Source of the DNA: a virus
Strand: one strand, 5' to 3'
Length of the DNA: 64,000 nucleotides
IMG/VR virus record: IMGVR_UViG_3300042544_000912
Coordinates: 1-64,000 of that record
A program made the position numbers and the translations under genes. The first letter of the stretch is position 1. Each line of letters begins with the position of its first letter. Of this stretch, positions 12,369 through 64,000 are shown piece by piece. The notes beneath the pieces are model-generated. The model saw only the letters and a program-made list of their open reading frames with translations, was not told where the DNA came from and ran no database searches.

Positions 12369-12773
12369 ATGTCGATGCATCTGTTGGGCCCAGCTTATAC
12401 CACTAACAATAACCGTAAGCGCAAATCTAAAGTCCCTGTTACAAAATATTCACAGGACTGGGTAGATTATAATAAGCAGATGAAACGCATTGGTGCAAAG
12501 ACCAAGACGTTTGACGAATATGTTGCATATCGCCAAGGTAAGTCCGGCTTCAAACTAAAGAGTTGTGTGAGAGGTCCAATGGATGCTGCACCATATCGCC
12601 GCGAAGCACCTAAGTATGAGAGCGGAGATGGAATCGGCGTCACGTTTGCTAAGAAGCCCAATGAATATACAGGCACACTAATTAAGGGTATTGCCACGAT
12701 GCATAAATCTAATGCAGTGCCAGTTATCAATCAAGATCAGATGGAAGAAATCTCGAGGATGCGTAGAGGTTGA
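12369..12773 (+). CDS. conserved T4-like phage hypothetical protein
   Basis: C-terminal IKGIATMHKSNAVPV...EISRMR motif that I recognise from aquatic myophages; AAGGAG RBS. Confidence 0.65.
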   Translation: MSMHLLGPAYTTNNNRKRKSKVPVTKYSQDWVDYNKQMKRIGAKTKTFDEYVAYRQGKSGFKLKSCVRGPMDAAPYRREAPKYESGDGIGVTFAKKPNEYTGTLIKGIATMHKSNAVPVINQDQMEEISRMRRG

Positions 12774-21221: not shown

Positions 21222-21297
21222 ATCATATTTTGCTAAAAGAAAGTATCTAAAACGAATTAAAGAATTGCGTAAACTGGATCCGTTCATTTATGATTGA
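21193..21297 (+). CDS. 34-aa basic peptide (not in the ORF track)
   Basis: MLKLLINKIKSYFAKRKYLKRIKELRKLDPFIYD; the ELRK.DPFIY end is a motif I recognise upstream of phage carbamoyltransferases; overlaps both neighbours. Confidence 0.6.
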   Translation: MLKLLINKIKSYFAKRKYLKRIKELRKLDPFIYD

Positions 21298-28782: not shown

Positions 28783-28810
28783 AAAGGGGCGCTTAGAGCG
28801 CCCCTTTTTT
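28783..28810. terminator. bidirectional intrinsic terminator
   Basis: AAAGGGGCGC-TTAGA-GCGCCCCTTTTTT between convergent genes. Confidence 0.85.
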
Positions 28811-37102: not shown

Positions 37103-38029
37103 ATGATGGATAACAGAACAACTAATAACGTTGGTCAGTTTTACTGGTGGTTCGGCGTGGTCGAAGATCGCGACGACCCCTTACGCATGGGTAGATGCCG
37201 TGTTCGTATTATGGGCTATCACATAGATAGCAAAGAAATACTTCCTACCGAAGATTTACCATGGGCATTTCCAATTATGCCCGCAAACAACCCTTCTATC
37301 TCAGGTACAGGTACTTCATCAAACGGTGTCGTTACTGGTACTTGGGTAGTAGGCTTCTTCGCAGATGGGTCTGACGGTCAACATCCAATGTTCTTCGGCA
37401 CAGTCGGTGCTGTTCCTGGTGGACCATACGGAGATCCTTGTGCGCCCGCGGGTGGCAATTCAGCAAGCGATACCGGCGGTGAAACAGGCTCGTTCACTGA
37501 GCCAAGCGGAAATGCAAAGTCTTTAGAAGAGTATCTAGAAAAATTCTTAGATACAAATGGGCCCCAATTACCCAACTGGGGTCCAATGGCCAAAGCTGCT
37601 ATTATGGCACAGTGTGCCCATGAAACCGGAAACTTTGTTTACTTGAAGGAATACGGCTCAGAAAGTTATTTCACGAAATACGACCCTGGTAATCACAAAG
37701 ATGCTAGAGCTAACGGAAATACCCAGGTAGGCGATGGCGCAAAGTATAAGGGTAGAGGATATATTCAATTAACTTGGAAAAATAACTACATCAAAGCCGG
37801 GGAATATATTCGAAAAGATTTGCAGAATAATCCAAAACTCGCGGAAACCAAAGAGATTGCAGCAATGTTGGTAGTATGGTATTTCAAAACCCAACGAGCT
37901 AGAATTGGCAATGGTAATAAATGGGGTGATATCGTCGCTGTAACTAAAGCGGTTAACGGCGGAACAAACGGCCTTGACGATAGAAAAGCGAAGTTCGCCC
38001 ACTATAAAAAGAAGTATGGAATAGCATAA
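37103..38029 (+). CDS. gp5 N-terminal OB-fold fused to a GH19 (chitinase/lysozyme-like) domain
   Basis: WWFGVVEDRDDPLRMGRCRVRI, LPWA, WVVGFFADG (gp5 OB); AQCAHETGNF, YKGRGYIQLTWKNNY, VNGGTNGL (GH19). Confidence 0.88.
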   Translation: MMDNRTTNNVGQFYWWFGVVEDRDDPLRMGRCRVRIMGYHIDSKEILPTEDLPWAFPIMPANNPSISGTGTSSNGVVTGTWVVGFFADGSDGQHPMFFGTVGAVPGGPYGDPCAPAGGNSASDTGGETGSFTEPSGNAKSLEEYLEKFLDTNGPQLPNWGPMAKAAIMAQCAHETGNFVYLKEYGSESYFTKYDPGNHKDARANGNTQVGDGAKYKGRGYIQLTWKNNYIKAGEYIRKDLQNNPKLAETKEIAAMLVVWYFKTQRARIGNGNKWGDIVAVTKAVNGGTNGLDDRKAKFAHYKKKYGIA

Positions 38030-41000: not shown

Positions 41001-43242
41001 CCACGCAATAAAGGTCGATGGATTAAAACCGATAAACTATCAAGCAGATAGAACAAAATACATTATACCTCTCAACAGACCCGAGGGTACAGAAAGTATT
41101 GATGCTCAATTAACTCGCGAAATTGAATATACGCAGCGAGACATTGTAGAATTAAATCAAGAGGTTACCGCCGACCCGACCGGTTCGACTGCTAAATGGG
41201 ATCTTCCTACCGCCGAGGCATGGCTTGATGTTCTTAATGCTCTAAAGAGAGAACAAAAAAATATTATCTTTAACTATAATAAGTGGGTTAGAGATACTAA
41301 TAATCCTCCTCTTGGACCAGATACTCCAGTATCGACAGATTTAGCATCTGCCAAGGTAGGAATTATAGGCGAATATACTTCAAATCTAGAAAAAGTCAAG
41401 AAGACATTTTCAAATAATACTCCAGTAGCTTCACAGGGTGCAAGTAAAGCGGGTGAAGATGGTTCTACAACAACTGTTGTCACCGAAAAATACGGCGATG
41501 GTTCGATTGTCAAGACTACAATCGTAGAAGACCAAAAGGGTTTTGCGACTTCACAAAAAGAAGTGACGAGAGTTGCTCCTCCGATTGCTTCTCCTGCACC
41601 AAGCACTAATCCTCCTGTGGAAGACTCTATCCAACATCCCGCGCATGATGATCCTAATCAAACAGTGACGCAGGCCCCACCCAATGTGGCTAGTATTCCG
41701 ATATCTAATCCTACAAACAATGGTTTTGGTGACCCCCTCGGACAATATCCAAAAGCAAGTCTTGGTGGTAAACCAGATATCAATCCACTAGCTGTAGGTG
41801 TAAACTCTCCTCATATTCAAAATGACCCAGCCTCACAGGGTGCAAAACAAGAAACTCTGGGTATAGGTTCTTCACCTGCTGCAAAGAATGCTGTTCGTAA
41901 GAAAGACGTTCCGAAAGCGGGTAGACATGGCGGGTCATGGTCGCAGCCCGAAACTCCATATGCAGCAAGATATCCTTACAATAAAGTTACTGCATCGGAA
42001 TCAGGTCACGTTACAGAAATTGATGATACACCGGGCGCAGAAAGAATTCACACTGCCCATAAGTCTGGTACATTCCAAGAAATTGGACCTAACGGCACCC
42101 AAGTAACTAGAATTGTAGGTGATAACTACACAATCATCGACAGTAATGGTTATATCCTTATCGAAGGTAGAGCTAACGTTCACGTTGCTGGTGAATGTAA
42201 TGTTATGATTATGGGTGATGCTAATCTTACTATGAATGGCAAAGTTAATATGGACGTTCACAACGACTTCAATCTAAACGTTGCTGGCCACTTCGGGTTG
42301 TCAGTCGGCGGCGGCATCTTCATTCGCAACGATGGCGTATTCTCGCACGATAACAAGGGCGATATGCAAATTCATGGAGCAGGTAACTTCAACTCTACGA
42401 TTGATGGCACTCAAAATCTAACAGCAAGTGGATATAAAGTAACATCTAAGGGTGATTATCATGTTAAGGTAGCGGCAGTGTCTTATCATACGTCTGTTGG
42501 CAATATCAATCAAGACACAGATGGTTCAATCTTGAGCAAAGCCGCAGTAACTATCGATAGTAAGTCGGGCACACATACAAACATCGAATCGCTTGGTAAT
42601 ACAAATATCAAGTCTGCTGGTTCTGTTAATACGGAATCAATTGCTGCCACAAATATCAAGTCTGCGAATGTGATTAATGCACAAGCAACAGATTCGATTA
42701 ACGTCAAGTCTGGTAATGCGGTGAATGTCAACTCTGCGGCAGCAACCAACGTTAAGTCTGGTGCAGCCGTAAATGTTGAGGGCGCAGGTAATATCAATCT
42801 TAAGGCACCTCTTGTCGCATCTTCGCCGATTGATACGCCAACTTTAGATGTTACAACTGCAAATATTTCTACACTGAATGCTGGTAGCACAAATCTTCGA
42901 GCAACCGGAACTGATACTGGCACTAATGGGGGCAGCACCCACGATCTTCCGATATCTGGACCGACATCTGCCTCTGTCACCGCACCCGCCGCGGCAGCAA
43001 CCGCTGGTAATGCTAACTCGGCTGACCCGGCAAGCGAAGCAACTGGCGCCAAGATTGCAACACTGGCTAATCCAATTCCAGTTGAGAAGCCGGTATCAGT
43101 CTCGGCATCTCCGATTGTCGCAGGCATAAGCGGTAATCAGACTAACGGAGCAGGCGGAAATAGCTTACCTATTAACTCTGCTGGTGGCGCTCAGTTTGAC
43201 GTTAGAGATTTCGAAAAAGAAAATCCAGTAACACACGGATAA
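38029..43242 (+). CDS. giant gp5 C-terminal (beta-helix spike) protein with long N-terminal extension
   Basis: YPYNKVTASESGHVTEIDDTPGAERIH..HKSGTF.EI and following beta-helix repeats (NIKSAGSVNTES...); about 1300 aa of Ala/Ser/Thr-rich extension. Confidence 0.75.
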   Translation: MSLLQATSLITSGVKSLKTGKLPDLASTVNALSSAGVLSKDEAKVVKAGLSLANTVAPGTSTNLSIVTNSLATVGILTKTEAATLTKQINVSSSSLSSNTTGNVNKLLGTLTKSGVIDANTSKLLSSGISILTSASNGSVNGVITGALKLAGVSPSVEKAAVQIMQAVPTTIETSKASSGYQTTTTILPDIGSPGILTKDDCVKLLTACQMAIHKKYVVNGKRNNWRKVHNRGEYGAYRMSVSQLIDIDFLKPEIQEWAEECIHSRPTGPGAAERIKTYAEAVQETNGDYDFAPFKREAANNLQYFFLYNPIPLDHVAAVRSMITFITSEEMQDKAAYYYLKKAYADLSNAKIVNEQTPKTTIAGLLAIALCAKLDDAIRFSQGVIKTNADGISSKYWYDTGWNALAETPKTTNSDTPLLKEGVRSPTTEISTKALIETAKDLADVMSGKNINGVVSGLVKNGILPADVGGIVEAGLGIAASVIKDKLAEIDKAKDALLKASSVLPAGASSSLKSISSISSKVNGVTSKVPSISSVAAKANVATVTSNISATSNVTSLAKKITAIAGDIENTATTAVGSALGSVGASGKVDPASLSFIGESLKSGFGLANDPQTAVVNELNRRGMCPPGSTALLRAAIDGVSDPAKISDLIAAETNKMGNVGTAIPALNTKIIEQTGAKPGLANKFEEAKAAAISAIGVSKPELTALVSSAGSASMESLQKKATQAADNILNTTTTAVSGLELANNLTSVTAGAADPASAAAALGASAVSNVTGSASAATDAVSGIAGNSQGALNSATGNVTNALSNAASNVTGMLGGSSPTTTEKPAEGQIVSSFLPVSPASVPPTPQTGAASADAVPALPSTQIAAAVGGPTQASSPPVDPNPIKTPYGSVEVSYQWTASNGVVTLSAKGSPIASVNLIDKTDTKTPQYETLIAAIDGAIKQERINNYTPRVPKTFEQNIGNALYPQNSGALPLREIPIIATVIPFMGDHAIKVDGLKPINYQADRTKYIIPLNRPEGTESIDAQLTREIEYTQRDIVELNQEVTADPTGSTAKWDLPTAEAWLDVLNALKREQKNIIFNYNKWVRDTNNPPLGPDTPVSTDLASAKVGIIGEYTSNLEKVKKTFSNNTPVASQGASKAGEDGSTTTVVTEKYGDGSIVKTTIVEDQKGFATSQKEVTRVAPPIASPAPSTNPPVEDSIQHPAHDDPNQTVTQAPPNVASIPISNPTNNGFGDPLGQYPKASLGGKPDINPLAVGVNSPHIQNDPASQGAKQETLGIGSSPAAKNAVRKKDVPKAGRHGGSWSQPETPYAARYPYNKVTASESGHVTEIDDTPGAERIHTAHKSGTFQEIGPNGTQVTRIVGDNYTIIDSNGYILIEGRANVHVAGECNVMIMGDANLTMNGKVNMDVHNDFNLNVAGHFGLSVGGGIFIRNDGVFSHDNKGDMQIHGAGNFNSTIDGTQNLTASGYKVTSKGDYHVKVAAVSYHTSVGNINQDTDGSILSKAAVTIDSKSGTHTNIESLGNTNIKSAGSVNTESIAATNIKSANVINAQATDSINVKSGNAVNVNSAAATNVKSGAAVNVEGAGNINLKAPLVASSPIDTPTLDVTTANISTLNAGSTNLRATGTDTGTNGGSTHDLPISGPTSASVTAPAAAATAGNANSADPASEATGAKIATLANPIPVEKPVSVSASPIVAGISGNQTNGAGGNSLPINSAGGAQFDVRDFEKENPVTHG

Positions 43243-51614: not shown

Positions 51615-54600
51615 ATGGCCTTGGACTTAAATGTATCACCGTATTATGATGATGCTGCGGCAGCGATTGCAAACAATTACAATAGAATTCTGTTCAAGCC
51701 AGGTTATGCTGTTCAGGCAAGAGAACTAACGCAACTTCAATCTATTCTTCAAGATCAGGTTGGAAAATTTGGTAACCATGTTTTTAAAAATGGTTCTGTA
51801 GTTGCAGGTTGCGAGTTCAAACTTGACACTGCACGAGATTTCATCAAAGTTCTTGATGAGAATACTTCTGGAAGTTTAATCGAAAATATTGAAGATTATA
51901 TTGGTGCCAAGGTAATCGGTCTAACATCATCCATTCAAGCAGAAATTGTTCATGCGATTTCAGGCTCCGAAGCCGACTCGCCTAATCTCAATACACTTTA
52001 TTTAAGATATCTTACCGGTGATGGTTCCACTGACGCGGTTCACTTTTCTCCCAGCGAAACAATTCGAGTAATAGAATCTGAAACTGGAGATCAAATTGGC
52101 GATACCTTTGTAGTAGATAACACCTTCGAAGAGGGCAATTATTATTATGGTAGAGGGTCATTCATAACTCTAGATAATGGTATTATTTTTCTAGATGGTA
52201 AGTTTCTTCCTTTTACTAAAACTACTCTCGAACTACTAAAATATAATGCGTATCCGTATTTTAGAATTGGGTTTGAGATTGTAGAAAGTATCGTCACACA
52301 CGAAACTGACCCAGATCTTTTGGATCCTGCACAAGGCACATTCAACTATGCGGCACCTGGCGCCGACAGATATGTGACTACCGCGTCTCTGGTCAAATAT
52401 GCACTGGATGCCACACCCTCAGATGACTTCTCAGAGTATTTGACGATTGTTGGTGGTAAGTTACAAAATGTTGTAAGCGAAGATCGCATTTATGCCGACC
52501 TCGGTCGCAATCTTGCAAAGCGCACTTTCGATGAATCCGGTAACTATACCGTAAAAGCGTTTCCTATTTTAATCAAGGAACATCTCGACACCGGAACTAA
52601 CGGCGGTCTGATTGCATATGATGCAGAAAATCCCGCGGCGGGTGGCGATGAGACACTTCTCGCAATCGGTATTGAAGCTGGTAAAGCATATGTTCGTGGT
52701 TACGCATACGAAACCAGACAGACAGAATATATTGTTGTTCCGAAAGGTAATACAACAAAAGTCATAAACGAAGTTCCTATTTCTACTGCATTTGGTAGCT
52801 ATATTCTAGTTGACAACTTCTGCGGTAACTGGGATATTGCAGCGGGTGATACCGTATCTCTTCGTGGTACCGCAGCGAATGCAATTGGCACTTCTGGTTC
52901 TCCAACTGGCGGCGCACAATCTCTTGCTGGCCCACCCGGTTCACAAATCGGCACAGCTAGAGTTCGTCATATTGTCCATGAAACCGGCACACCTGGGGTA
53001 TATAACACCCAATATCGTATGTATCTCTACGATATTCAAATGGCATCTTCATATAACTTCGAAGATGTTAAGGGTGTTTACTATGATACTACCGCCGATG
53101 GCCACGCGAACGTTGTTCTTGTAGATAGTAAAGCATACCTATACGAGAGTAAGTTCAACAGCCTTCTTTTCAAGTTACCCGCAAGAGCATTGAAGACTAC
53201 AAATCCTGTTTCGGTTGACAATAGTTTTGTCTACAACAAACAGTTTGATGATACTATTGATAGCAGCAACACTATTACATTCTCGGTAAGTTCACCAGAG
53301 AGTTTTCCGTTTACAGTTGGAACACTGACTAATACAGAAATTCTTGATAATATTATTGTTACTACAAAAGCTGCCTGCACTATCAATAGTGTTGCATATG
53401 AGATCGGTTCAGTATTAGACCTTCGCTCTACCGCTGGCGTATCTGTGACCAATACTGGTTCGCAGATTACAATAGCTTTCCCAGGAGCAATTCTCGCTGC
53501 CACGAACATTCGCGTTCACTGTAAGGTACAAGTTGCTGGTGCAAATAAAGTAACCAAGGAACTTAAAGAAAGTGCGGTTGTTGTTCTGGATACAGAAGAT
53601 AGCGGTAATACTACTGGCACATATAATCTCGGTGCGTCCGACGGTTACAAACTTCGCTCGGTCAAGATTGGCGATTTCGATGAAGACGCGGCAGATATTC
53701 AGACAGGTGGAACAGATGTAACTGCACTGTTCAACTTCGATACTGGTCAACGTGACGGCTTCTACGCAAACGCTAGAATTGTTAAAAAACCAGGTGCAAG
53801 TCTTACGCTAACCGACAAAAAGTTGGTTGTGACATTTGACTACTTCACGCACGGTGGTTCTCCTTCTACGGTATACAACTTCTACACAGTTGATTCATAT
53901 CCGGTAGACGATGAAACTACCCCAGCCGGTAAAATTCGCACGGAAGAAATTCCAATTTACACCTCCACAACTTCTGGGGTCACATACGACCTTCGTGATA
54001 CATTGGACTTCCGTCCTCGTTGGGACGATACAATTACATTCACGACAAGTCCTGCCTCAGCACCAGTTAATCCTGCAGTAGGTTCTTCACCGAGCGGCCC
54101 CGCTGGAGGTGCTATCATAACACCTTTCCCGACAGAACAATTTACTACAGATATTGAATATTATCTGGGACGTAAAGACAGAATTGTCATGGATGATGAA
54201 GGCGTATTCTCATCCGTATATGGCGTCTCCTCACTATCTCCAATTGAACCGGTAGAGCCAGAGAATGCTTTGTCTATTGCGATTGTGGATATTCCTCCAT
54301 ATCCTTCACTGGCACCTAGTGTTGCTAAGTCTGTGGGTAGAACCGATTACGGGGTTAAGTATAAATCGATTGATAATCGTCGCTATACAATGCGCGATAT
54401 CGGTCAACTAGAACAGCGACTAAATCGTCTTGAATATTATACATCTCTAAATCTACTGGAAAAATCTGCCAGTGATTTGAGCATTACTGATACAAACGGT
54501 CTAGACCGTTTTAAGAATGGTATTCTCGTAGATGCCTTCACCGGGCATAACGTTGGTAATGTTTTAAGTAATGAATACCATATTGCTATCGATCCTGCCG

Positions 54601-57536
54601 CTAAAGAAATGCGTCCGTTCTTCTTCATGGAAAATGTGGACTTACAATACGATTCGACAAACTCGACTAATATTACAAAAACAGGCGATTTACTGACACT
54701 ACCGTATACAGAATTTACGATGATGAGTCAGTTACAAGCATCTAGGTTTCGTAATTGCACAGGCGAACTTCTGTTCACATATATTGGTGATATGGAACTT
54801 GATCCGCCTGTCGATAACTGGTCTGACACTACAACCCTTCCTGATATTTCTGCAAACTTTGACGGTAACTATGACGCATGGGAAACTCTTGCCGACGCAT
54901 GGGGTACCCAATGGGAAGATTGGCAAGATACCGGAACAGGTAGAGTTACAGCGAATACGCAGCGCGCCGCGGGTAACACCGCAATACGAGGCGATACTCT
55001 TTTCCAAGAAGATATTGCTATTGTAACGACTACAACAGAACAAAGACAAACTCGTCAGGGCGTCCAACTTACGGTAACACCGGAAACACAGACTCAAAGA
55101 ATAGGTCCTAGAGTAACAAATACTTCTATCATTCCGTTTATGCGTTCTATTATAGTAACGTTTAAAGCAACGAGAATGAAGCCACTTACTCGTGTATATC
55201 CATTCTTCGATGGCATTACTGTGGAAGAACATTGTCGCCCACTATCAGGTATTGTTAGTGGCACAACAAATTCTGTTCAAAACTCATCACTAGCAACGGG
55301 TGATTATGGTGATCCCTTAATCACAAATGCGGCAGGCGAATGTTTTGGTCAATTCAGAATTCCTGCTGGTACTTTCCGTGTAGGAGAAAAACTATTCAGA
55401 CTTGCAGATGATTCTAAAAATAGAGTTAAGTTTATTACTACATCTGCATCGATGGCATTCTCTGCAAATGGTTTATCACAAAGCGTCCAAGATACAGTAA
55501 TCTCGACGAGAGTTGCCAATGTGGCAGCCGTCAATCTTTCGGATAGCAGAACGGTTTCTGATAGCAATACGACGGTAAATCGTCTAGGCGAAAGAGCAGT
55601 AGGTGTCGTTCAAACAACAGTTGTGAACAATACATTCACTACAATTAATAATACGACAAATGTTACCGAAGTTACGCAAGTAACACAAGAAGTAAATAAT
55701 ACTTTTGTAACAGAAGTCACTAATAATATCACAAATGTTACCGAAGTTACTCAGGTAACTGCGCCAGATCCGGCGCCCGTTGTTCCACCCGCGGACTTGG
55801 ACTTGGACTTCGATCTTGGTTTCTTTTCAATCGGCCCATTCCAATCTATTGACCCTATCGCTCAGACGTTTATGGTTTCTGAGGTGCCGTTCGGTTGTTA
55901 TGTGACTTCGATAGATACCTACTTCAAGAAAAAATCTCTGACAAATCCTATTACACTACAACTGCGGGAAGTGGTAAATGGTTATCCAGGTAACAGAGTA
56001 ATTCCTTTTGGTGAAGTAACACTATTGCCAAGTCAGGTAAATGTTGATGCGGACAATGGCGAAGCGTCAACCAAGTTTACTTTCCCTTCACCGGTATATT
56101 TGCAAAACAATACCGAATATTGCTTTGTTCTTCTGCCAGCGGGCAACGACCCTAACTATGAGATTTGGGTTTCTGAATTGGGTGAAAATCAACTCAATAC
56201 AACAACACGCATCTCAGAACAGCCAAATGTTGGTGTCCTATTTACATCTGCGAACAACAGAACTTGGACAGCATGGCAAGCGGAAGATATTAAGTTTAAA
56301 TTACAGAGAGCAAACTTCAACATCGGTACAACCGGAACAGTTACACTGAATACACATGATATCGATTATGCGAAATTTGATTCCTTCTCGGAAGGTGCAT
56401 TTACTTCCGGTGATAAAATTCATGGCTTCTCGTTTGACATCGTTAACGCGGGTACTGGTTATACACCGACAAACGGTACGGTCAGCCACGCACTGAGTGG
56501 TGGAATAAGCACGGGCGGAACGAATGCTACGGTTGCAGTCACTTTTTCCGGTGGCGCAGTAAGTAATGTGGTGGTGACAAACCCAGGTTCTGGTTATGTA
56601 AGCAATCCTACTCTGACTATTACTGGTGGTGGTTCAAATGCAAATATTAGCGTGACCCTCAATTCCGGTTTTGCCCATTCGTATGATTCCTTATACAACG
56701 TTGCTAAGGTTTATGTTGAAAGTGGAAACTTTACTGTAAACGACCGAGTGGGTAATGGAACTTCTCATGCTCTAATAGCAGAACTTGAAGACAAAGTGTT
56801 GAATGCATTAGGTGCCAATGTTGGATACATGGATCATACTCCATGTCAACTAATTTGGGCATATTCTGCAACGACAAATACTGGTTCCGAGACACAAGCA
56901 TCGTCATCATATGAGAATTTTGTGCCGGATAAAACAACGGAACTGACAATCGATGCCGCCATTCGTTCATATTCAAATGAGCAAAATGATCTTGGTGGAG
57001 ATAAGTCATTTAAAATTCAACTTGGCATGACATCACAAACATCTACTGTTTCGCCGGTTATCGACCTTAGAAAATGTTCTATGATTGCAATCGCAAATGA
57101 CGTTAATAATGATGCGACCGACGAAGATATTGGTATCGGTGAAGCAAGGTCCAAGTATGTTTCTCGTCAAGTTGTGCTTGATGATGGACAGGAAGCAGAA
57201 GACCTTAGAGTATATCTAAGTCAGTATGTTCCAAATGGCACGGACGTAAAGGTATATGGTAGATTCCTACATCAAAGCGATCCGGCGGCATTTGAAGAAA
57301 AAGATTGGATTGAGTTGACTACCACTCCACCAACAGTTACTTCATCTAGCTTCGTTGAATATACATATGATATTCCATCGACCGAATTGAATGGTGATGG
57401 CGTATTTGAGTATACTACAGACGGTGTAACTTACACGGGCTACAAAACTTTTGCGATTAAAGTAGTTCTTCTTTCGAGTAAAACTAGTGTTATTCCAAAA
57501 TGTCGCGAACTTCGCGCAATAGCTCTACAGGTATAA
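51615..57536 (+). CDS. large virion structural/tail fibre protein (VrlC-like, DUF4815-type)
   Basis: LNVSPYYDD, RILFKPGYAVQARELTQLQSILQDQ, APGADR, GKAYVRGY, DRFKNGILVDAF, DPIAQTF. Confidence 0.8.
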   Translation: MALDLNVSPYYDDAAAAIANNYNRILFKPGYAVQARELTQLQSILQDQVGKFGNHVFKNGSVVAGCEFKLDTARDFIKVLDENTSGSLIENIEDYIGAKVIGLTSSIQAEIVHAISGSEADSPNLNTLYLRYLTGDGSTDAVHFSPSETIRVIESETGDQIGDTFVVDNTFEEGNYYYGRGSFITLDNGIIFLDGKFLPFTKTTLELLKYNAYPYFRIGFEIVESIVTHETDPDLLDPAQGTFNYAAPGADRYVTTASLVKYALDATPSDDFSEYLTIVGGKLQNVVSEDRIYADLGRNLAKRTFDESGNYTVKAFPILIKEHLDTGTNGGLIAYDAENPAAGGDETLLAIGIEAGKAYVRGYAYETRQTEYIVVPKGNTTKVINEVPISTAFGSYILVDNFCGNWDIAAGDTVSLRGTAANAIGTSGSPTGGAQSLAGPPGSQIGTARVRHIVHETGTPGVYNTQYRMYLYDIQMASSYNFEDVKGVYYDTTADGHANVVLVDSKAYLYESKFNSLLFKLPARALKTTNPVSVDNSFVYNKQFDDTIDSSNTITFSVSSPESFPFTVGTLTNTEILDNIIVTTKAACTINSVAYEIGSVLDLRSTAGVSVTNTGSQITIAFPGAILAATNIRVHCKVQVAGANKVTKELKESAVVVLDTEDSGNTTGTYNLGASDGYKLRSVKIGDFDEDAADIQTGGTDVTALFNFDTGQRDGFYANARIVKKPGASLTLTDKKLVVTFDYFTHGGSPSTVYNFYTVDSYPVDDETTPAGKIRTEEIPIYTSTTSGVTYDLRDTLDFRPRWDDTITFTTSPASAPVNPAVGSSPSGPAGGAIITPFPTEQFTTDIEYYLGRKDRIVMDDEGVFSSVYGVSSLSPIEPVEPENALSIAIVDIPPYPSLAPSVAKSVGRTDYGVKYKSIDNRRYTMRDIGQLEQRLNRLEYYTSLNLLEKSASDLSITDTNGLDRFKNGILVDAFTGHNVGNVLSNEYHIAIDPAAKEMRPFFFMENVDLQYDSTNSTNITKTGDLLTLPYTEFTMMSQLQASRFRNCTGELLFTYIGDMELDPPVDNWSDTTTLPDISANFDGNYDAWETLADAWGTQWEDWQDTGTGRVTANTQRAAGNTAIRGDTLFQEDIAIVTTTTEQRQTRQGVQLTVTPETQTQRIGPRVTNTSIIPFMRSIIVTFKATRMKPLTRVYPFFDGITVEEHCRPLSGIVSGTTNSVQNSSLATGDYGDPLITNAAGECFGQFRIPAGTFRVGEKLFRLADDSKNRVKFITTSASMAFSANGLSQSVQDTVISTRVANVAAVNLSDSRTVSDSNTTVNRLGERAVGVVQTTVVNNTFTTINNTTNVTEVTQVTQEVNNTFVTEVTNNITNVTEVTQVTAPDPAPVVPPADLDLDFDLGFFSIGPFQSIDPIAQTFMVSEVPFGCYVTSIDTYFKKKSLTNPITLQLREVVNGYPGNRVIPFGEVTLLPSQVNVDADNGEASTKFTFPSPVYLQNNTEYCFVLLPAGNDPNYEIWVSELGENQLNTTTRISEQPNVGVLFTSANNRTWTAWQAEDIKFKLQRANFNIGTTGTVTLNTHDIDYAKFDSFSEGAFTSGDKIHGFSFDIVNAGTGYTPTNGTVSHALSGGISTGGTNATVAVTFSGGAVSNVVVTNPGSGYVSNPTLTITGGGSNANISVTLNSGFAHSYDSLYNVAKVYVESGNFTVNDRVGNGTSHALIAELEDKVLNALGANVGYMDHTPCQLIWAYSATTNTGSETQASSSYENFVPDKTTELTIDAAIRSYSNEQNDLGGDKSFKIQLGMTSQTSTVSPVIDLRKCSMIAIANDVNNDATDEDIGIGEARSKYVSRQVVLDDGQEAEDLRVYLSQYVPNGTDVKVYGRFLHQSDPAAFEEKDWIELTTTPPTVTSSSFVEYTYDIPSTELNGDGVFEYTTDGVTYTGYKTFAIKVVLLSSKTSVIPKCRELRAIALQV

Positions 57537-57537
57537 T

Positions 57538-57771
57538 ATGTCTCAAAGATATCAGTTGGACGACACAACTAAATATGTTAGAGATGGCCATTCAAAAGCT
57601 ATTATTTCTACGGATGTTGCTGGATTGTCTGCATACAAAGCTAGAAAAAACAAACAAAGAGAACAAGCGCATCAACTTCGACAGTTTGAAAATGACATAA
57701 ATACTGTAAAAGAAGAGATGCAAGATATCAAATTGCTATTGCAGCAAATCTTACAGAACCAGGGTAGATAA
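57538..57771 (+). CDS. small coiled-coil protein
   Basis: KYVRDGHSKAIISTD then heptad pattern; commonly follows VrlC-like genes. Confidence 0.6.
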   Translation: MSQRYQLDDTTKYVRDGHSKAIISTDVAGLSAYKARKNKQREQAHQLRQFENDINTVKEEMQDIKLLLQQILQNQGR

Positions 57772-57774
57772 GAT

Positions 57775-58257
57775 ATGTCCACTATTACACTTAGATCCGT
57801 AAAAGGAACTCCACTTACAAACACAGAAGTTGATAATAACTTCAACAACCTGAATACTGATAAGTATCAGTCGGGTGATAGTCCTACCTTTGGTAGTCTT
57901 ACTCTCACTGGTAATTTCATGCCGTCGATTGCTACCGCAGTTTCGGCCGCAGGCACAAATCAGTCAGGTGCAACAGAACTTGCTAAGGTATATAACTTAG
58001 TGACTACTGTTGGTTCGGGTGCAGGAGTTAAACTTCCTACCGCGGCAGAGAAGCTAACATATACGGTAGTGAATACAACGGCTACTAATCTTTTGATTTA
58101 TCCTAATCTTTCGGATAAGATCAACGGCGGAACTGCCAATGCTGCGGTAACATTAGCGGCGGGTTCTTCTGTAACTTTCATTGCTAAAGACGCTACGGAT
58201 TGGTATTCGTTGACCCCTCTATTAGTATTTGATTCGAGCGGCACAAGACTAAACTAA
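57775..58257 (+). CDS. virion structural protein (fibre N-terminal type)
   Basis: ITLRSVKGTPLTNTEVDNNFNNL motif. Confidence 0.65.
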   Translation: MSTITLRSVKGTPLTNTEVDNNFNNLNTDKYQSGDSPTFGSLTLTGNFMPSIATAVSAAGTNQSGATELAKVYNLVTTVGSGAGVKLPTAAEKLTYTVVNTTATNLLIYPNLSDKINGGTANAAVTLAAGSSVTFIAKDATDWYSLTPLLVFDSSGTRLN

Positions 58258-58268
58258 GGTTATAGAAA

Positions 58269-59750
58269 ATGAATCCTTTAAAGATTAAGGCATCTGCAAC
58301 TCCGATTACGTCTTCAAACTTCCAAGGTTTGCAGACGATGACGGACAATGAAATAAAGAACTACATTGCAAATGTCATCACAACAAAGTTTGCTACCGAT
58401 ACTAACGGTTCGGGCACGGCAGAATTGAATGTTGATACTGCAAATGCTTTATCGGGTACCTCAATCGGAACATTTTCTGATACTGATAGAACAGAAGCTA
58501 CCGGCACACACCCTGCAACCGGTGGCATTACTACCACAACATATTATGCAAAGCAAGTTACTGCCGCTGCCTCTGAAAGCATAACTAATAGACCAGTCGG
58601 TTATGGTACTGGCATGGAAGAGTTGACAGATGCCGAAATGCGCACCGATGTTCTCGACAAAGTTATCGCCGCGATGGTTGCAGAATCTTCTTATACTGCT
58701 GGCCAATATAAGTTGTCCGCCTCGGCTCCAGCTGGCGGCACCTGGACTTCTCGTTACACCATTACAGACGTTGCGAATGGTGGAAACACTACAACATATC
58801 TGTGGCAGAAAACGGCTGCAACTTCGGCCGCAGATGGCGATCTACGCCCACTAAAAGTATTCAGTGGAAATAACGTCAGGCAAATGAGTGATGCTGAAAT
58901 TCAGCAAATGCTTCCTTATTTCCGCAACAGAATTATTTCTACTGGCATCGGCACATATTCGTTACAAGCAACTGCTCCGGTATCTGGTACGTGGGTTCAA
59001 ATGGGCGATGCATTCAGTGATACTCGTGAACAAGTAGTGTCGCAAAACTATACCGGCTATTATACAGGTAACTATACCGGCACATATACAGGTAGCTATA
59101 CTGGCACATACTCTGGTCCATATTCACAAAACTATACGGGTACCTACACAGGTAACTTCGTTGGACCTAAAACATATTCACAAGCATATTCCGCAGGATA
59201 TACAGGTAGCTACACAGGTAGCTTCGTTGGACCTAAAGCATATTCACAAGCATATTCCGCGTCATATACAGGTAACTATACCGGTTCGTTTGCAGGTACT
59301 GGAGCATATTCACAAGCATATGCCGGAGCATATTCTGGTGCATATACAGTCTACTATGGTGGTTATAGTTCCCCTGCTACATGGTACACGGGCTACTATA
59401 CCGGATATTTTACTGGCTTCTATACTGGTCCTAAGAACTATTCTGGAACATACTCTGGACCATATACTGGATTTTACACCGGTTTCTATACAGGCACAGG
59501 CACATATTCTGGAACATACTCTAGTGCGTATACTGGATTTTACACCGGTTTCTATACAGGCACAGGCACATATTCCGGACCATACTCTGGCCCATATACT
59601 GGATTTTACACAGGTAGCTATACTGGCACATACTCTGGTCCATATTCGCAAGCATATTCTGCTGCATATACTGGCGTATATGCGGGCAACACAGTAATCG
59701 TAACCAAAGATACAGTATCTACGGTAAAGCTCTGGATTCGCACAGCCTAA
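58269..59750 (+). CDS. putative fibre/needle protein with period-4 Y-(T/S)-G-x repeats
   Basis: Translation; position in the fibre cluster. Confidence 0.7.
   Translation: MNPLKIKASATPITSSNFQGLQTMTDNEIKNYIANVITTKFATDTNGSGTAELNVDTANALSGTSIGTFSDTDRTEATGTHPATGGITTTTYYAKQVTAAASESITNRPVGYGTGMEELTDAEMRTDVLDKVIAAMVAESSYTAGQYKLSASAPAGGTWTSRYTITDVANGGNTTTYLWQKTAATSAADGDLRPLKVFSGNNVRQMSDAEIQQMLPYFRNRIISTGIGTYSLQATAPVSGTWVQMGDAFSDTREQVVSQNYTGYYTGNYTGTYTGSYTGTYSGPYSQNYTGTYTGNFVGPKTYSQAYSAGYTGSYTGSFVGPKAYSQAYSASYTGNYTGSFAGTGAYSQAYAGAYSGAYTVYYGGYSSPATWYTGYYTGYFTGFYTGPKNYSGTYSGPYTGFYTGFYTGTGTYSGTYSSAYTGFYTGFYTGTGTYSGPYSGPYTGFYTGSYTGTYSGPYSQAYSAAYTGVYAGNTVIVTKDTVSTVKLWIRTA
59049..59681 (+). repeat. mirror-symmetric YTG repeat (37-17-17-13 | 13-aa loop | 13-17-17-37 aa)
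   Basis: Parsed from the translation; six 5-aa linkers (VGPKT, VGPKA, AGTGA / TGPKN, TGTGT, TGTGT). Confidence 0.9.
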
Positions 59751-59795: not shown

Positions 59796-60242
59796 GTGAC
59801 ACGGAAAATTGAAAATCCCTATTGGTCAAATAAAGATACAAAGCACGTTATTGCCGAATTCGTATACGAAGATGGTAAGAGACAGTTGGCATCCATCATG
59901 GGTGATGAGAATAATCCTGATTTTAAAGAAATCATGGAACTCTTCACCGAGGAAGAAATTGATGCTAACACAAAAGTTCGGTTAGACAAGCGCGACGAAC
60001 AGGTTCGCCGCAATCGCGAACGTCAAGAAGTAGATAGATCCAGAATGCAGCAAGAGACCTTGTTCGCGGCCAAGCTGGATGCTTTTGAAATTCCCATAAT
60101 CAAGACTTCAACAAATCGTGCAGCAAAAGCAAAGATACGTAAGGCCAAAACACTTATGGAAGTAACGGCATATGCTATCATGCTTATGATGCAAGAGGAA
60201 GCTAATACAACAATCGTAACAGAAGCGCAAGATGCAGAATAA
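59796..60242 (+). CDS. hypothetical protein (possible fibre chaperone)
   Basis: ORF between the fibre and glycosyltransferase genes; GTG start. Confidence 0.55.
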   Translation: MTRKIENPYWSNKDTKHVIAEFVYEDGKRQLASIMGDENNPDFKEIMELFTEEEIDANTKVRLDKRDEQVRRNRERQEVDRSRMQQETLFAAKLDAFEIPIIKTSTNRAAKAKIRKAKTLMEVTAYAIMLMMQEEANTTIVTEAQDAE

Positions 60243-60933
60243 TGGTTTTGTTTACGTAGCATCTAATAATAGAGCGTATTATAGGGCAGCAAGAAACTCT
60301 GCTCAGTCGCTACTAGATTATTATCCTGATGCCAAGATCACAATTTTCACACATCCCGAATGGGTTGAAGAGGGTGACGACCAAATTTTCGAACGTATTT
60401 ACACGGATGATGTCCCGTATCATATTAGAGCCAAGCTGTGGGCGTTGGATAAGACGCCATATGACTTGACTTTATATGTGGATTGCGATACTGAAATTTG
60501 CCACGAAGATATCCAAAAAGTCTTCGAACAGATACCAGAAGATACGGACTTGTTATTCACTGCCAATCGACCATATAACGCAAAGCTCACTCGGTTATCC
60601 GAGACTGAGGAGATGACAGAACATTGCGGTCTATTTTTATATCGCAGTAACCCCGAAACGTTACGTTTGATGGGTGCATGGTGGAGCGAATATTGTAAGC
60701 AGAGAGAACCAGATTACGACCATCTGCATTATCCAAAGCAAGCACTGCAATGGGATACATTCACCATGTGGCGTCTACTGACATATGGCGACTTCAAAAT
60801 TAAACACGGTAGATTTCCAGACCCCGATGCAAGATGGAACTTTGTGGTCGGATACAAAGAAGAAGAACTACAGGGTCAAGAAATGGTAATTTACCATTAT
60901 ACACTCCCCAAATCTATATTGGATGCAAAATGA
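60232..60933 (+). CDS. GT-A glycosyltransferase (GT8/nucleotide-diphospho-sugar transferase-like)
   Basis: GFVYVA, RAKLWAL..TPYDLTLYVDCDT (DxD), WNF, IYHY. Confidence 0.7.
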   Translation: MQNNGFVYVASNNRAYYRAARNSAQSLLDYYPDAKITIFTHPEWVEEGDDQIFERIYTDDVPYHIRAKLWALDKTPYDLTLYVDCDTEICHEDIQKVFEQIPEDTDLLFTANRPYNAKLTRLSETEEMTEHCGLFLYRSNPETLRLMGAWWSEYCKQREPDYDHLHYPKQALQWDTFTMWRLLTYGDFKIKHGRFPDPDARWNFVVGYKEEELQGQEMVIYHYTLPKSILDAK

Positions 60934-61580
60934 GATTTACACCTAAAATCAGTGACGACCTTCTAGCAATTCTTGAACCATATCGCGAATGGTTCTTTGC
61001 TCAGAATGATCATGATAGCCTACGCGAGCCTAGTAGGATTAATGGAAAGACTTTCGAGACTGCCACGAGTGAACAATATCTGAATGAACTCGTGGCAAAA
61101 GATGGAGAGCATGTGGGATTTCCAGAATGCGCTTATTGTTGCGACATTGGTATGGTAGATTCTGTTCCTCGGCACCACAAAGACAAGCAACGGGCGCTAA
61201 ACGAGCAACTTATTCGGTTCCTCGGTGCCAGAAATAATGCGGTTCACGTTTATTATCCAGAAGAAGGATTCATGGGCTGGCACACAAACTGGAATGCACA
61301 CGGTTATAACATTCTTCTGTCATATAACACAGAAGAAAATACCGGCTATTTTAGATACTTAGACCCAGTAACAAAAGAAGTAGTCACTCTCTGGGACCCA
61401 AAAGGGTGGTCTTGTAAAGTTGGATACTTTGGTCGTCGGAGTGAAACGGATAAGATTATTTACCATTCTGCTGGCTCACATACTAAGAGATTGACATTGG
61501 GTTATGTTGTTCCTCATCTTGAAATCTGGCAATCAATGATTGAAGATATTTCAGGTGAAGATGCGTCTGACTACTTCTGA
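60930..61580 (+). CDS. 2OG-Fe(II) oxygenase/cupin-like protein
   Basis: YYPEEGFMGWHTNWN (H-x-N) and IYHSAGSHTKRLTLGY (distal His plus Arg). Confidence 0.6.
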   Translation: MRFTPKISDDLLAILEPYREWFFAQNDHDSLREPSRINGKTFETATSEQYLNELVAKDGEHVGFPECAYCCDIGMVDSVPRHHKDKQRALNEQLIRFLGARNNAVHVYYPEEGFMGWHTNWNAHGYNILLSYNTEENTGYFRYLDPVTKEVVTLWDPKGWSCKVGYFGRRSETDKIIYHSAGSHTKRLTLGYVVPHLEIWQSMIEDISGEDASDYF

Positions 61581-62227
61581 CCTATTACCATGAAACGGTC
61601 AAAAGTAACTTTGCCATCCCATGACCAATAAGACTGTTCGATGCTTCCTTCGTAAAAGCTATTGGTAACTCCAACATTTTCAATATGTTCTTCGATGGTT
61701 GGAACACAATTGATTCCATACATTTCACGAAATACATTTGAAGATTGGCACGCAAAGATACAATCTGGATTTGCCGTAGTCATATTCTTCAAAGGATACA
61801 TAACTTCACATGCAAGTGAAATTACCACGTCCGTATTTAGCGCATTGATATCATGATACGCAAATGGTATATCCCAATTTAAATGATTCAATTCTATATT
61901 TTTTTCATTATTATAATGTCTATTGAATACCTTTGATAGCTCAAGTGCATCTTTATCAATATCAATAAGATTAATCTTCTTAATATTTAAGTTTTCACAA
62001 AGAAGTGGTACTAGTGGAAATCCTAGCCATGAATTGAGAATAGTAATATCCAATTCTTTGGTCTGCACTAAATCTTTAAGATTTTCTACTAACCAGATAG
62101 CAGCATCCATTGTATTTGGATTTAACGACTTGCGAAAGTCTTCGTGCTTCCATGGCATCTCATGGTTGATCTTTTCTAGACCTTCACCCCAATTACGATA
62201 GTTATTCAAAAAATTATAGTTTAGCAT
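61571..62227 (-). CDS. class I SAM-dependent methyltransferase-like protein
   Basis: ITILNSWLG (motif I variant), INLIDID (motif II), DVVISLACE, FACQSSN. Confidence 0.55.
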   Translation of the reverse strand: MLNYNFLNNYRNWGEGLEKINHEMPWKHEDFRKSLNPNTMDAAIWLVENLKDLVQTKELDITILNSWLGFPLVPLLCENLNIKKINLIDIDKDALELSKVFNRHYNNEKNIELNHLNWDIPFAYHDINALNTDVVISLACEVMYPLKNMTTANPDCIFACQSSNVFREMYGINCVPTIEEHIENVGVTNSFYEGSIEQSYWSWDGKVTFDRFMVIGQK

Positions 62228-62897
62228 CTTGTGGTCTTTCCATTGAATCGTATAAACAAATTAGTGGCTCTTCTCGTAGAACTTGTTCCCTAGTATCTGT
62301 CGGCCACATATATCCATAATTATAACTGTATATCCAGCCGTCCGGAAAATAGTCAATCTTTAAAAGACGTTCTCTTTGATGCCCGAACATATTATCAAGA
62401 CCTCGATAATAATAAAACATTTGGTCAGGATAATCTTTAACAAACTTTGTGATTTTATCAACATCCAATTTGTCATTCCATCTCAATACACTTGAATTCA
62501 AGTCTGTATACTTGTGAGGAATATGTTTAGTGTCGTCCTTCATCTTCTTTAGATTGTGCCAATGAGTTCGGATAAAAGTTAGTTTATCTTCTGGATCATG
62601 CTGAACAATACAATCGATGTTCTGTTGAATATCAATATCCAAATCGAAGAATAGTTTCTCACCCTGTTTCCGAATAAAATGTCTATCAAACAGATAAAGT
62701 TTATTCCACCATTTTTCATAATAATTATTTTCTGGAATAGGAACAATAATTATTTCGGGATTTAAATCTGTAGCATGTTCTGTTATGCAGTGAAACTCAA
62801 ACTCACTGGTGATATGCTTGTTGCATTGCTCGAACAATTTATTGACATATTCTGGGCCATATTTGAAGCCCCATTTTACTGTATAGATGTTAATCAT
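62214..62897 (-). CDS. glycosyltransferase-like protein (KWG.KY family)
   Basis: TVKWGFKYGPEYVNKL, WWNKLYLF, LFFDLDIDI (DxD), NSSVLRW. Confidence 0.7.
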   Translation of the reverse strand: MINIYTVKWGFKYGPEYVNKLFEQCNKHITSEFEFHCITEHATDLNPEIIIVPIPENNYYEKWWNKLYLFDRHFIRKQGEKLFFDLDIDIQQNIDCIVQHDPEDKLTFIRTHWHNLKKMKDDTKHIPHKYTDLNSSVLRWNDKLDVDKITKFVKDYPDQMFYYYRGLDNMFGHQRERLLKIDYFPDGWIYSYNYGYMWPTDTREQVLREEPLICLYDSMERPQDAKL

Positions 62898-63715
62898 CAA
62901 ACGTTCCAATGCTCTAATAAGTCAGAATCAACCAAAGATTGCTGCTTCACTTTACCGCGTCTATTGTCCTGAAATGGAAGTAAGTCTACATTGAATACAC
63001 ATAGAATGCAGTCTTTTCTATATTTAGCTACTTCTAAATCACCTTCGTGCCAGTTACGACCACGATTATATGAATACGCAAATGTGCTTGGGAAATGTCT
63101 CCATAATGGAGTATCGCTAAAGTCTCCCCATCTCCAACTGTGGTAGTTGTCTGTGCCATCTGTAAACGTGAACCAGATACGTTCTTGATGTTCTAGAACA
63201 TCCTGCCAAATACATTCTGTCTGATCATCTGACCAGACCATGCAACTACCATTTGTATATGCGCCATGTGCCAGTTTGAAGTTGCGAGATTTCATTGGTC
63301 GAGGGTCTTGCCACCACGAACGCAACTTGGTAGGATTCTCTAAGTCATAAGTGATGATTGGCGACAAATCATTTTGAATGATAACATCAAGGTCGAAAAA
63401 GACAAATCTTCCAGTGGGGTTATCGTCTGCGAAGTTGTGTGTATTGAAGATGAACGTCTTTGGTCTGTCCCAACAACGTGCCATGCCGTATTTGAAATCA
63501 TCTGTTCCAAACCAGTATTTCGGATGAATGTCGGGAATGTCTGGGAAGTCGATGACTTTAATTTCATTTTCAAAACCTTCACTGTTATCGGTATAGCAAT
63601 AGAAATGGAACTCAAATTTATCCGGGGTATGCTTCTTCGCCATCCGATAAAGACGGTTGACAAACTCGGCATCATATTTGGTACCCCATTTGCAGCAAAT
63701 ATAATTAACTCTCAT
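62897..63715 (-). CDS. glycosyltransferase-like protein (KWG.KY family), paralogue
   Basis: CCKWGTKYDAEFVNRL, VFFDLDVII, NGSCMVW; ATGA overlap. Confidence 0.7.
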   Translation of the reverse strand: MRVNYICCKWGTKYDAEFVNRLYRMAKKHTPDKFEFHFYCYTDNSEGFENEIKVIDFPDIPDIHPKYWFGTDDFKYGMARCWDRPKTFIFNTHNFADDNPTGRFVFFDLDVIIQNDLSPIITYDLENPTKLRSWWQDPRPMKSRNFKLAHGAYTNGSCMVWSDDQTECIWQDVLEHQERIWFTFTDGTDNYHSWRWGDFSDTPLWRHFPSTFAYSYNRGRNWHEGDLEVAKYRKDCILCVFNVDLLPFQDNRRGKVKQQSLVDSDLLEHWNV

Positions 63716-64000
63716 TTCCATAATTCAAGAATACTTTCATCCTGACAATCTGCCAGTTCTATTTGTTCTTTTGCAGAAGGATGTGGAACATTATCGGTAT
63801 TGAATATACAGATTTTCGCATCGTCTCTAAACTTAAAACGCTCTACATCCGTTGGATGATAACGGCCTCTGTTCCAAGAATATACCCAATTATCTGGAAT
63901 GTTTTTCCAGAAATCTCGCTGTCGCCAATAATGATAGTTATCGCTGCCTTTAAAGAACGTTTTAAAAACTATCTCTTCTTCACTAAAAACGTCAAAATAT
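63712..64000 (-). CDS. 3' part of a further glycosyltransferase-like paralogue (truncated by the window edge)
   Basis: Translated by hand: FKGSDNYHYWR..WVYSWNRGR..KICIFN..LELWK*, matching the C-terminus of the 62897-63715 protein. Confidence 0.65.
   Translation of the reverse strand, partial: YFDVFSEEEIVFKTFFKGSDNYHYWRQRDFWKNIPDNWVYSWNRGRYHPTDVERFKFRDDAKICIFNTDNVPHPSAKEQIELADCQDESILELWK

Follow-up and report, generated by a model that had tools for sequence, protein, structure and literature searches.

Introduction

In bacteriophage T4 the chain of the gp37 tip reportedly runs out to the tip and returns (an observation attributed to Bartual et al. in 2010), and gp37 is an intertwined homotrimer in which metal ions sit on His-x-His motifs. 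Glycine-rich repeats are found in the polyglycine-II or polyproline II (PPII) bundles of the phage S16 gp38 adhesin and of the snow-flea antifreeze protein, in which Gly recurs at every third residue and of which the S16 type is located at phage fibre tips. The gp37 needle measures about 150 × 25 Å (PMC3004832), and general background on Gly-rich phage adhesins has been given elsewhere (bioRxiv 10.1101/2023.11.25.568672). The closest known architecture to that of the protein described here is the P2 domain of perforin-2 (MPEG1), a pseudo-threefold domain in which one much longer repeat forms a membrane-binding 45-Å beta-hairpin with a hydrophobic tip (PMC6989145). In the present study we analysed a gene for a protein of 493 amino acids (aa) carried by a viral metagenome sequence, positions 1 to 64,000 of the IMG/VR record IMGVR_UViG_3300042544_000912; this whole stretch of 64,000 nucleotides (nt) is hereafter called the window. 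We consider it probable that the protein carries a single hairpin of its third base repeat, stretched by Y-(T/S)-G-x units into an out-and-back rod, and that it serves as a length-adjustable host-contact fibre of an uncultured T4-like aquatic myophage.

Mirror symmetry of the repeat

The gene and the parts of its product are as follows.

58269..59750, + strand: whole gene, from the list of open reading frames (ORFs); 493 aa plus stop, with base domain, putative giant hairpin and closing strand
58269..59030, + strand: base domain, residues 1-254; three tandem homologous repeats of ~90 aa, predicted to be beta-prism-like and pseudo-threefold (AlphaFold, hhalign)
59049..59345, + strand: outgoing (N) arm, residues 261-359; Y-(T/S)-G-x units, blocks of 10, 5, 5 and 4
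59346..59384, + strand: tip TVYYGGYSSPATW, residues 360-372; YYGG turn, then a short variable stretch
59385..59681, + strand: returning (C) arm, residues 373-471; blocks of 4, 5, 5 and 10
59682..59747, + strand: closing strand (…TKDTVSTVKLWIRTA), residues 472-493; predicted to return into the third base repeat (AlphaFold, conservation)

An earlier note on this DNA, made by reading the letters without database searches, had described the stretch 59049-59681, which corresponds to residues 261-471 of the 493-aa ORF, as an exactly mirror-symmetric repeat, and when the aromatic positions were recounted every one of its block and kink numbers proved correct. Aromatic residues stand at every fourth position in blocks of 37-17-17-13 aa in the N arm and 13-17-17-37 aa in the C arm, with 10, 5, 5 and 4 aromatics in the blocks of the former (residues 261-297, 303-319, 325-341 and 347-359) and 4, 5, 5 and 10 in those of the latter (373-385, 391-407, 413-429 and 435-471). 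Each lattice Tyr of the N arm at position i has its mirror partner at 732 minus i. The 6-residue spacings between blocks, referred to here as kinks, likewise form mirrored pairs (297-303 with 429-435, 319-325 with 407-413, and 341-347 with 385-391), and all three pairs share one midpoint, i+j = 732, centred on Y366. When the order of the inter-aromatic gaps was randomised and the best mirror scored, 300 shuffles gave 29.2±2.6 mirrored aromatics and never more than 39, as against 49 of 61 in the protein itself (z ~7-8); the symmetry thus lies beyond chance, as had been supposed. When only the N arm and the C arm were compared, 24 of 27 positions agreed under the mirror and 19 of 27 under the best translation, a shift of 88. 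Within the four-residue unit the phases are strict, with Y or F at the first position in 48 of 48 cases, T or S at the second in 39 of 40, G at the third in 31 of 40, and a variable residue at the fourth. Y, G, T and S account for 75% of the repeat, and residues 261-471 contain 0 His, Cys, Asp or Glu.

At the DNA level each arm is its own tandem array with a unit of 66 nt (22 aa).

59133..59333, + strand: N-arm tandem array; 66 nt, 3.0 copies, 82% matches (Tandem Repeats Finder, TRF)
59439..59630, + strand: C-arm tandem array; 66 nt, 2.9 copies, 88% matches (TRF)

Units of the N-arm and C-arm arrays are only ~60% identical, and no inverted repeat or palindrome was found between the arms at the DNA level. 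It is the block architecture that is symmetric, and the sequence is not. Since the two arrays are separate, ~60% alike and not related by an inverted repeat, the arms appear to have expanded separately and to have arrived at the same final copy number.

The protein family and its matched arms

The query protein had no match in Pfam (E up to 0.1), PHROG (0.01), the PDB sequences (1) or NCBIfam, the locus gave no blastn match among phage genomes, and no description of this repeat or fold was found in the searchable literature. A search with the first 260 residues yielded 664 homologues after clustering at 90%, which form 557 clusters at 50% identity. Their origin is metagenomic throughout, on contigs of up to ~175 kb, with the sole exception of phage C48C1 (Kyanoviridae), a protein of which was also the sole tblastn match in the phage genome collection. 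The family is large, widespread in aquatic T4-like phages and completely unannotated. Its members are 287-3347 aa long, and nearly all of them have in common an N-terminal part of ~255 residues, a middle rich in Tyr and Gly that varies greatly in length, and a closing strand …LW(I/V/L)RTA; in the closest relative, P0001, the base is 96% identical to that of the query. The C48C1 member (OQ984149.1 141011-151054) is the hypothetical protein WJE88074.1 of 3347 aa. Its repeats are an Arg-rich Y-x-R-x-R-x-S-x-Y, and three small genes downstream of it are followed by an annotated L-shaped tail fibre assembly protein. Among the giant relatives, P0237, P0239, P0233, P0145 and P0139 have non-repeat segments that resemble head domains on a hairpin stalk.

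The two arms vary in length together. In 67 close relatives the stretch that precedes YYGG, counted from where the repeat begins, and the stretch between YYGG and the closing strand were correlated in length (r = 0.97 over 50-134 aa). In the wider set the insert is divided by a single YYGG-like motif, and more than 20 length classes (13/16, 17/20, 21/24, 25/28, 30/33, 37/40, 53/56 and so on to 133/136) show an N-minus-C offset of exactly -3. The same was examined independently of the turn, by comparing the mirror axis of the aromatic lattice with the axis of two conserved Trp residues in the base strands. A rigid mirror was significant (z of at least 3) in 131 of 251 complete relatives, and in 81 of these 131 the lattice axis fell exactly +1 from the Trp axis; the 81 relatives represent 40 distinct Trp-to-Trp spans, from 153 to 493 aa. 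The two axes were one period of four apart in a further 12. Forty spans with a fixed mirror axis, together with per-arm 66-nt arrays of equal copy number, bear out the earlier prediction that length changes would have to occur in matched pairs.

Turns were located by a regular expression, which misplaces the turn in proteins of more than 600 aa, where YY[GSA]G-like strings recur, and which sometimes anchored on repeat 2 instead of repeat 3 and so gave offsets of ~85; such outliers were taken as artefacts and not as asymmetric arms. In some distant relatives the stalk arms are similarly long (381/385, 238/235 and 283/270) and enclose a non-repeat insert of 100-300 aa, and in others the flanking arms are clearly unequal (393/283, 266/381, 368/598 and 915/487), the overall r being 0.45. 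The insert-bearing relatives fit a display-stalk role and provide weak supporting evidence. The non-repeat inserts of the giant relatives had no Pfam or PHROG match, and their ESM Atlas scores did not exceed 0.78.

Complementary kinks and the conserved turn

The six kinks of the query are listed below.

59157..59177, + strand: kink N1, FVGPKTY, residues 297-303, facing C3
59223..59243, + strand: kink N2, FVGPKAY, residues 319-325, facing C2
59289..59309, + strand: kink N3, FAGTGAY, residues 341-347, facing C1
59421..59441, + strand: kink C1, YTGPKNY, residues 385-391
59487..59507, + strand: kink C2, YTGTGTY, residues 407-413
59553..59573, + strand: kink C3, YTGTGTY, residues 429-435

In the grammar of the query a G-P/A-K kink stands opposite a G-T-G/S/A kink at the exact mirrored position. 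Among relatives with this grammar 100 of 106 G-P/A-K kinks face a G-T-x kink; by pair, the counts are 100 for GPK|GTx, 2 for GPK|GPK and 0 for GTx|GTx, and 2 GPK kinks are unpaired. The outermost pair has been swapped reciprocally between the query (FVGPKTY|YTGTGTY) and P0001 (YVGTSPY|YTGPKTY). When the arms were paired by translation, no consistent kink rule was obtained across the query, P0001 and P0096. A second grammar places xGxR(T/N)Y opposite xGxR(T/N)Y (57 GxR|GxR pairs), and such self-pairing in an antiparallel alignment would set Arg opposite Gly. Relatives without any 6-residue spacing also exist (P0013, P0016, P0030 and P0036), and their arms of 114-137 aa are still mirrored.

Nowhere in the repeat region is conservation higher than in the turn motif (L/V)YYGG(Y/F). 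In the alignment of the query and its relatives (alignment A1) Y359 and G365 are invariant and Y363 is conserved in at least 90%; the variable part of the tip is YSSPATW only, and near relatives have FAAAW, YAAAW or FAAHW in its place. It had been suggested that a unique tip loop serves as a variable receptor-binding site, and this finds no support, given the conservation of the turn. Of the paired expectation that homologues would keep arm symmetry while their tip loops vary, the first half held, in 81 relatives, and the second did not, with variation confined to the short stretch after the turn.

Predicted structure of the hairpin and its base

AlphaFold was applied to the full-length query (alignment A1) and to P0183, a relative of 316 aa with arms of ~30 aa (alignment A2). 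For the query, residues 1-253 were modelled with a predicted local distance difference test score (pLDDT) of ~88 and the closing strand, 480-493, with 76-85; the strands that the low-confidence model places in the repeat mirror about 366 (347-359/371-383, 323-339/391-407, 285-302/432-449 and 249-268/466-492). The model of P0183 has a mean pLDDT of 92.8 and a predicted template modelling score (pTM) of 0.83, and shows one continuous hairpin, E238-270 plus E273-314, with a hairpin pLDDT of 69-91 and its turn on the GG of YYGG, on a base above 90 and with a closing strand at 91-98. By direct count the lattice mirror sum and the Trp anchor sum are 544/543 in P0183 and 732/731 in the query, +1 in both, and because the offset is equal the register of the query would be the AlphaFold register of P0183, extended. 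The AlphaFold check proposed in the earlier note gave a divided answer, a confident single hairpin for the short relative and low confidence for the query repeat itself. Mirrored kinks, complementary kink types and this confidently modelled short homologue support the proposal that the arms pair antiparallel. That both termini lie at the base was also well predicted: the C-terminal strand …LW(I/V)RTA is kept in relatives whose lengths range from 287 to 3347 aa, and in the AlphaFold models it is placed against the N-terminal domain. Foldseek searches of the PDB with both models gave no match at E <= 0.001, and only weak matches to pore-toxin hairpins.

The base repeats span about 1-100, 101-190 and 191-254. 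Their homology was detected by hhalign (R2-R3, probability 97.8%, E 9e-13; R1-R3, E 2e-4; R1-R2, E 3e-3), and a beta-beta-alpha-beta-beta-beta pattern occurs three times in both models. The R1-R2 alignment includes the last strand, TTTYYAKQVTA in one and TTTYLWQKTA in the other, and by direct reading the closing strand …TVKLWIRTA is the equivalent in repeat 3. Since the closing strand is the last strand of repeat 3, the giant hairpin would be the ordinary terminal hairpin of that repeat, lengthened. Both models were compared with 48,161 chains by VIA-align, for which the tool notes advise a Z of 8 for a fold match. The top four for both were the C-domain of Mp2Ba1 (8b6v), the C-domain of Plu-MACPF (2qp2), the MABP domain of MVB12B (3tow) and perforin-2 P2 (6sb1), with Z of 5.2-6.3, root-mean-square deviations of 3.6-5.4 Å and 115-123 aligned residues; the next unrelated row had a Z of at most 2.6. 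As a separate observation on the base, the tip of the short hairpin of repeat 1 (58269-58568; residues 77-85, ATGTHPATG) has A77, H81, P82 and G85 invariant across 45 relatives; it was modelled poorly by AlphaFold and is a candidate docking or ligand site.

A probable stretched hairpin and its alternatives

In the arrangement that we favour, residues 1-254 and the last ~14 residues would form a compact single-chain base. The final pair of strands in repeats 1 and 2 would make an ordinary short hairpin, and its counterpart in repeat 3 would be lengthened by ~210 residues. The chain would run out for ~105 residues, turn at YYGG and return in exact antiparallel register, with three two-residue register insertions (the kinks) per arm in mirrored positions. 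One face would then carry Tyr-Tyr and Gly-Gly pairs, and the other would pair Thr or Ser with the variable residue; given the like-with-like pairing of Y and G in the mirror, the Tyr rings may pack over neighbouring Gly pairs on the first face. If extended, the result would be a rod or ribbon of ~30-35 nm (105 residues x ~0.33 nm) with both chain ends in the base. Its length would change by duplication or loss of 12- or 66-nt tandem units through slippage in each arm separately, and selection against unmatched arms would let only matched variants persist. Such a fibre or probe might be placed at the baseplate periphery, beside the VrlC-like baseplate-distal protein and at the start of the host-recognition cluster, where the conserved aromatic tip, the Tyr ladder or both could touch the host envelope; the aromatic tip may act as that of perforin-2 P2 does, and the Tyr ladder might bind envelope glycans. 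A function as a host-contact fibre is suggested by gene context and by analogy.

A bolder form of this reading is possible, and we hold it only tentatively. Here the rod would be a free-standing, monomeric two-stranded beta-ribbon of ~30-35 nm in the query and ~5 to more than 80 nm in relatives, held by the cross-strand Tyr/Gly ladder and the paired complementary kinks alone, and it would represent a new class of fibre with quantised, matched length steps. It could work as a dipstick that takes its conserved aromatic tip across the surface layers of hosts, which differ in thickness, and may be decorated by the adjacent glycosyltransferase.

Several observations weigh against the stretched hairpin. 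The query repeat has a pLDDT below 50, and the confident hairpin is that of a relative with arms of only ~30 aa; the cross-strand register and the neighbours of each residue are deduced from the symmetry of the sequence. About half of the relatives, those with a G-S/T-R-T-Y grammar, fail the rigid mirror test. The gapless mirror fails in this subfamily because of small indels between the arms, and its members were assessed by arm lengths around the YYGG turn. Arms are clearly unequal in P0024 (97/77), P0005 (98/112) and P0017 (79/90), each a single metagenome contig in which the asymmetry could stem from assembly errors. The kink-pair counts are phylogenetically non-independent, the rule being seen nevertheless in several architectures. 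The fold match of the base, with a Z near 6, lies below the advised level and is suggestive only, and the virion location and the contact with the host are putative, being proposed from gene context and analogy. To our knowledge a free 30-nm two-stranded ribbon would be unprecedented, and it may need partners such as further copies, other proteins or glycans.

The rival that we regard as the least improbable, although still unlikely, is a trimeric needle of the gp37 kind in which three out-and-back chains would intertwine into a six-stranded rod with the Tyr face in its core and a tip loop that binds the receptor. It would account for a chain that runs out and back and has its two ends at the base, for the apparent fragility of a lone 30-nm two-stranded ribbon, and for the conserved Tyr/Gly face, as expected of a buried, self-complementary knob-into-hole surface; phage fibres are, moreover, usually trimers (PMC3004832). 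Yet no sequence match to any fibre family was found, the repeat is devoid of His and hence of His-x-His metal sites, the tip motif is conserved and not hypervariable, and the base is internally triplicated and modelled by AlphaFold as a compact monomer (pTM 0.83), which is unusual for trimeric fibre subunits. The parallel with the T4 needle drawn in the earlier note is thus not supported as regards kinship or a trimeric build, given the lack of a sequence match and of His and a single-chain, pseudo-threefold base that folds well as a monomer.

Still less probable in our estimate is a compact beta-sandwich, meander or solenoid, in which the GPK and GTG kinks would be true turns and the blocks of 13-37 aa would be stacked side by side. 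In its favour, G-P-K and G-T-G readily form turns, the 22-aa super-period allows the arms to be aligned by translation as well (shift 88, 19 of 27 aromatics), and the low-confidence model of the query has its strand breaks away from the kinks. Only the mirror, however, brings the kink-free basal blocks of 37 aa together and yields a consistent kink rule (100 GPK|GTx, 2 GPK|GPK and 0 GTx|GTx), and mirrored relatives exist that have no kinks in arms of 114-137 aa. The arms form a graded series that begins at 13 residues, too short for a sandwich, and P0183 is modelled as a single hairpin of 33+42 residues. We find it very hard to credit a mostly disordered Tyr/Gly/Ser/Thr linker of low complexity, which could act as a tether, either sticky or with heavy glycosylation, and would owe its apparent symmetry to repeat expansion alone. 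The extreme composition (75% Y, G, T and S), the low AlphaFold confidence for the query repeat and the probable glycosyltransferase two genes downstream would suit it, but it leaves unexplained the residue-exact equality of the arms in 40 length classes and the fixed base-anchor offset, as well as the complementary kinks with their reciprocal swap, the conserved YYGG and the strict Y, T/S and G phases.

Genomic context

The window is the first half of a linear 130.9-kb IMG/VR record that is estimated to be 80% complete. The gene belongs to a T4-like baseplate module, in which genes for gp5-like, gp25-like, gp6-like and wedge proteins stand upstream of it, and the gp6 homologue is closest to that of Pelagibacter phage HTVC008M (37%), followed by those of cyanomyophages (~35%). 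The psbA gene is absent from the 131-kb record, so that a cyanobacterial host is not supported. The immediate neighbours are the following.

51615..57536, + strand: DUF4815 (VrlC-like) structural protein, 1973 aa; Pfam PF16075, E 4e-50; opens the conserved module
57538..57771, + strand: virion structural protein, 77 aa; phrog_473, E 5e-17; conserved position
57775..58257, + strand: 160-aa protein directly upstream, without family match; position conserved (160 or 307 aa)
59796..60242, + strand: 148-aa protein directly downstream, candidate assembly factor; position conserved (141-155 aa); sub-threshold matches only
60232..60933, + strand: 233-aa probable GT-A-type nucleotide-sugar transferase, a lead only; ESM Atlas 0.96-0.97 to PF03407 and PF01501 clusters, with no hidden Markov model (HMM) match

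The gene order is DUF4815, a protein of 77-79 aa, one of 160 or 307 aa, the gene described here, then proteins of ~141-155, ~232-251 and ~213-215 aa and finally convergent genes, and it recurs beside two distant homologues, P0054 and P0183, that are only ~42% identical. In pelagimyophages the genes just downstream of VrlC have been described as tail fibres that open a hypervariable, glycosyltransferase-rich host-recognition cluster (PMC7029224).

Some further features of the window were noted. The Thr/Ser/Tyr-rich hairpin is a candidate substrate for glycosylation. The ORF after 60232-60933 probably starts at an ATG near 60930 (MRFTPK…, ~215 aa, as in homologous loci) and not at 60834; the downstream 248-aa ORF had no match in any library searched, and the convergent minus-strand ORFs at 61571-62227, 62214-62909 and 62897-63721 are without family match. 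At 37103-43242 (+ strand) the gp5-like function appears to be split over two proteins, one of 308 aa with the gp5 N-terminal and lysozyme domains and, directly after it, one of 1737 aa, residues 1286-1576 of which match the gp5 C-terminal region (phrog_430). The segment 12770-22723 (+ strand) combines a low G+C of 0.35-0.39 with a run of ORFs of similar size (386-474 aa); radical-SAM domains were found in the three ORFs scanned (12770-14086, 14083-15507 and 15491-16819), a carbamoyltransferase (21290-22723) comes after the run, and the whole may be a modification or biosynthesis cluster of tandem paralogues. A 774-aa ORF on the opposite strand, at 28809-31133 (- strand), coincides with a local G+C peak of 0.48 against ~0.40.

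Implications and comparison with known systems

If the stretched hairpin is correct, phages would possess a fibre principle unlike trimeric beta-helices, beta-spirals, coiled coils and collagen-like shafts, in which one beta-hairpin has grown from one blade of a pseudo-threefold domain to as many as hundreds of residues. The family would offer a natural, graded length series for the stabilisation of a two-stranded beta-ribbon by Tyr-over-Gly packing and complementary bulges, and would show clearly how selection can couple two tandem repeats that lie apart in one gene. In uncultured marine and freshwater myophages the gene would be a candidate marker or determinant of host contact within the host-recognition cluster. 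The protein may also be of interest in protein design, as a rigid spacer of programmable length.

Within the family, the one member from a named phage, WJE88074.1 of C48C1, resembles the query in its N-terminal base (28% identity), its Tyr-rich period-4 repeats, its closing strand (there …TYTLYVRVA) and similar downstream genes; it differs in being 7x longer, in its Arg-rich grammar and in several non-repeat stretches, and is unannotated and unstudied. Like the rod proposed here, the T4 gp37 needle is a thin distal rod of a T4-like phage with an out-and-back chain, whereas the query has 0 His in its repeat, no sequence match to gp37 and a single-chain base that points to a monomer. A PPII bundle was also considered and rejected, as the query has a period of 4, Gly recurring every four residues at a distance of two from Tyr, which fits beta strands and not PPII helices. 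The pore hairpins of aerolysin, lysenin, anthrax PA and CDTb are, like the query hairpin, very long, two-stranded and antiparallel, and they were its sole, weak Foldseek matches (E >0.1). Their stability, however, depends on their being staves of an oligomeric barrel, they alternate hydrophobic and polar residues, and a kinship with them is without support.

The comparison with perforin-2 P2 goes further. Both proteins are pseudo-threefold and made of three repeats, one of which is lengthened into a projecting beta-hairpin. Relative to perforin-2 P2 and the MACPF-associated domains, the phage protein is without sequence similarity (Pfam, PDB) and without disulfides, its repeat having no Cys. 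It would carry a helix in each repeat of the base and its third repeat is the extended one, whereas in perforin-2 P2 it is the first. Unlike that of perforin-2 P2, the phage projection is a period-4 Tyr/Gly repeat whose length varies between relatives, and it would be ~7x longer in the query and far longer still in some of the other members of the family.

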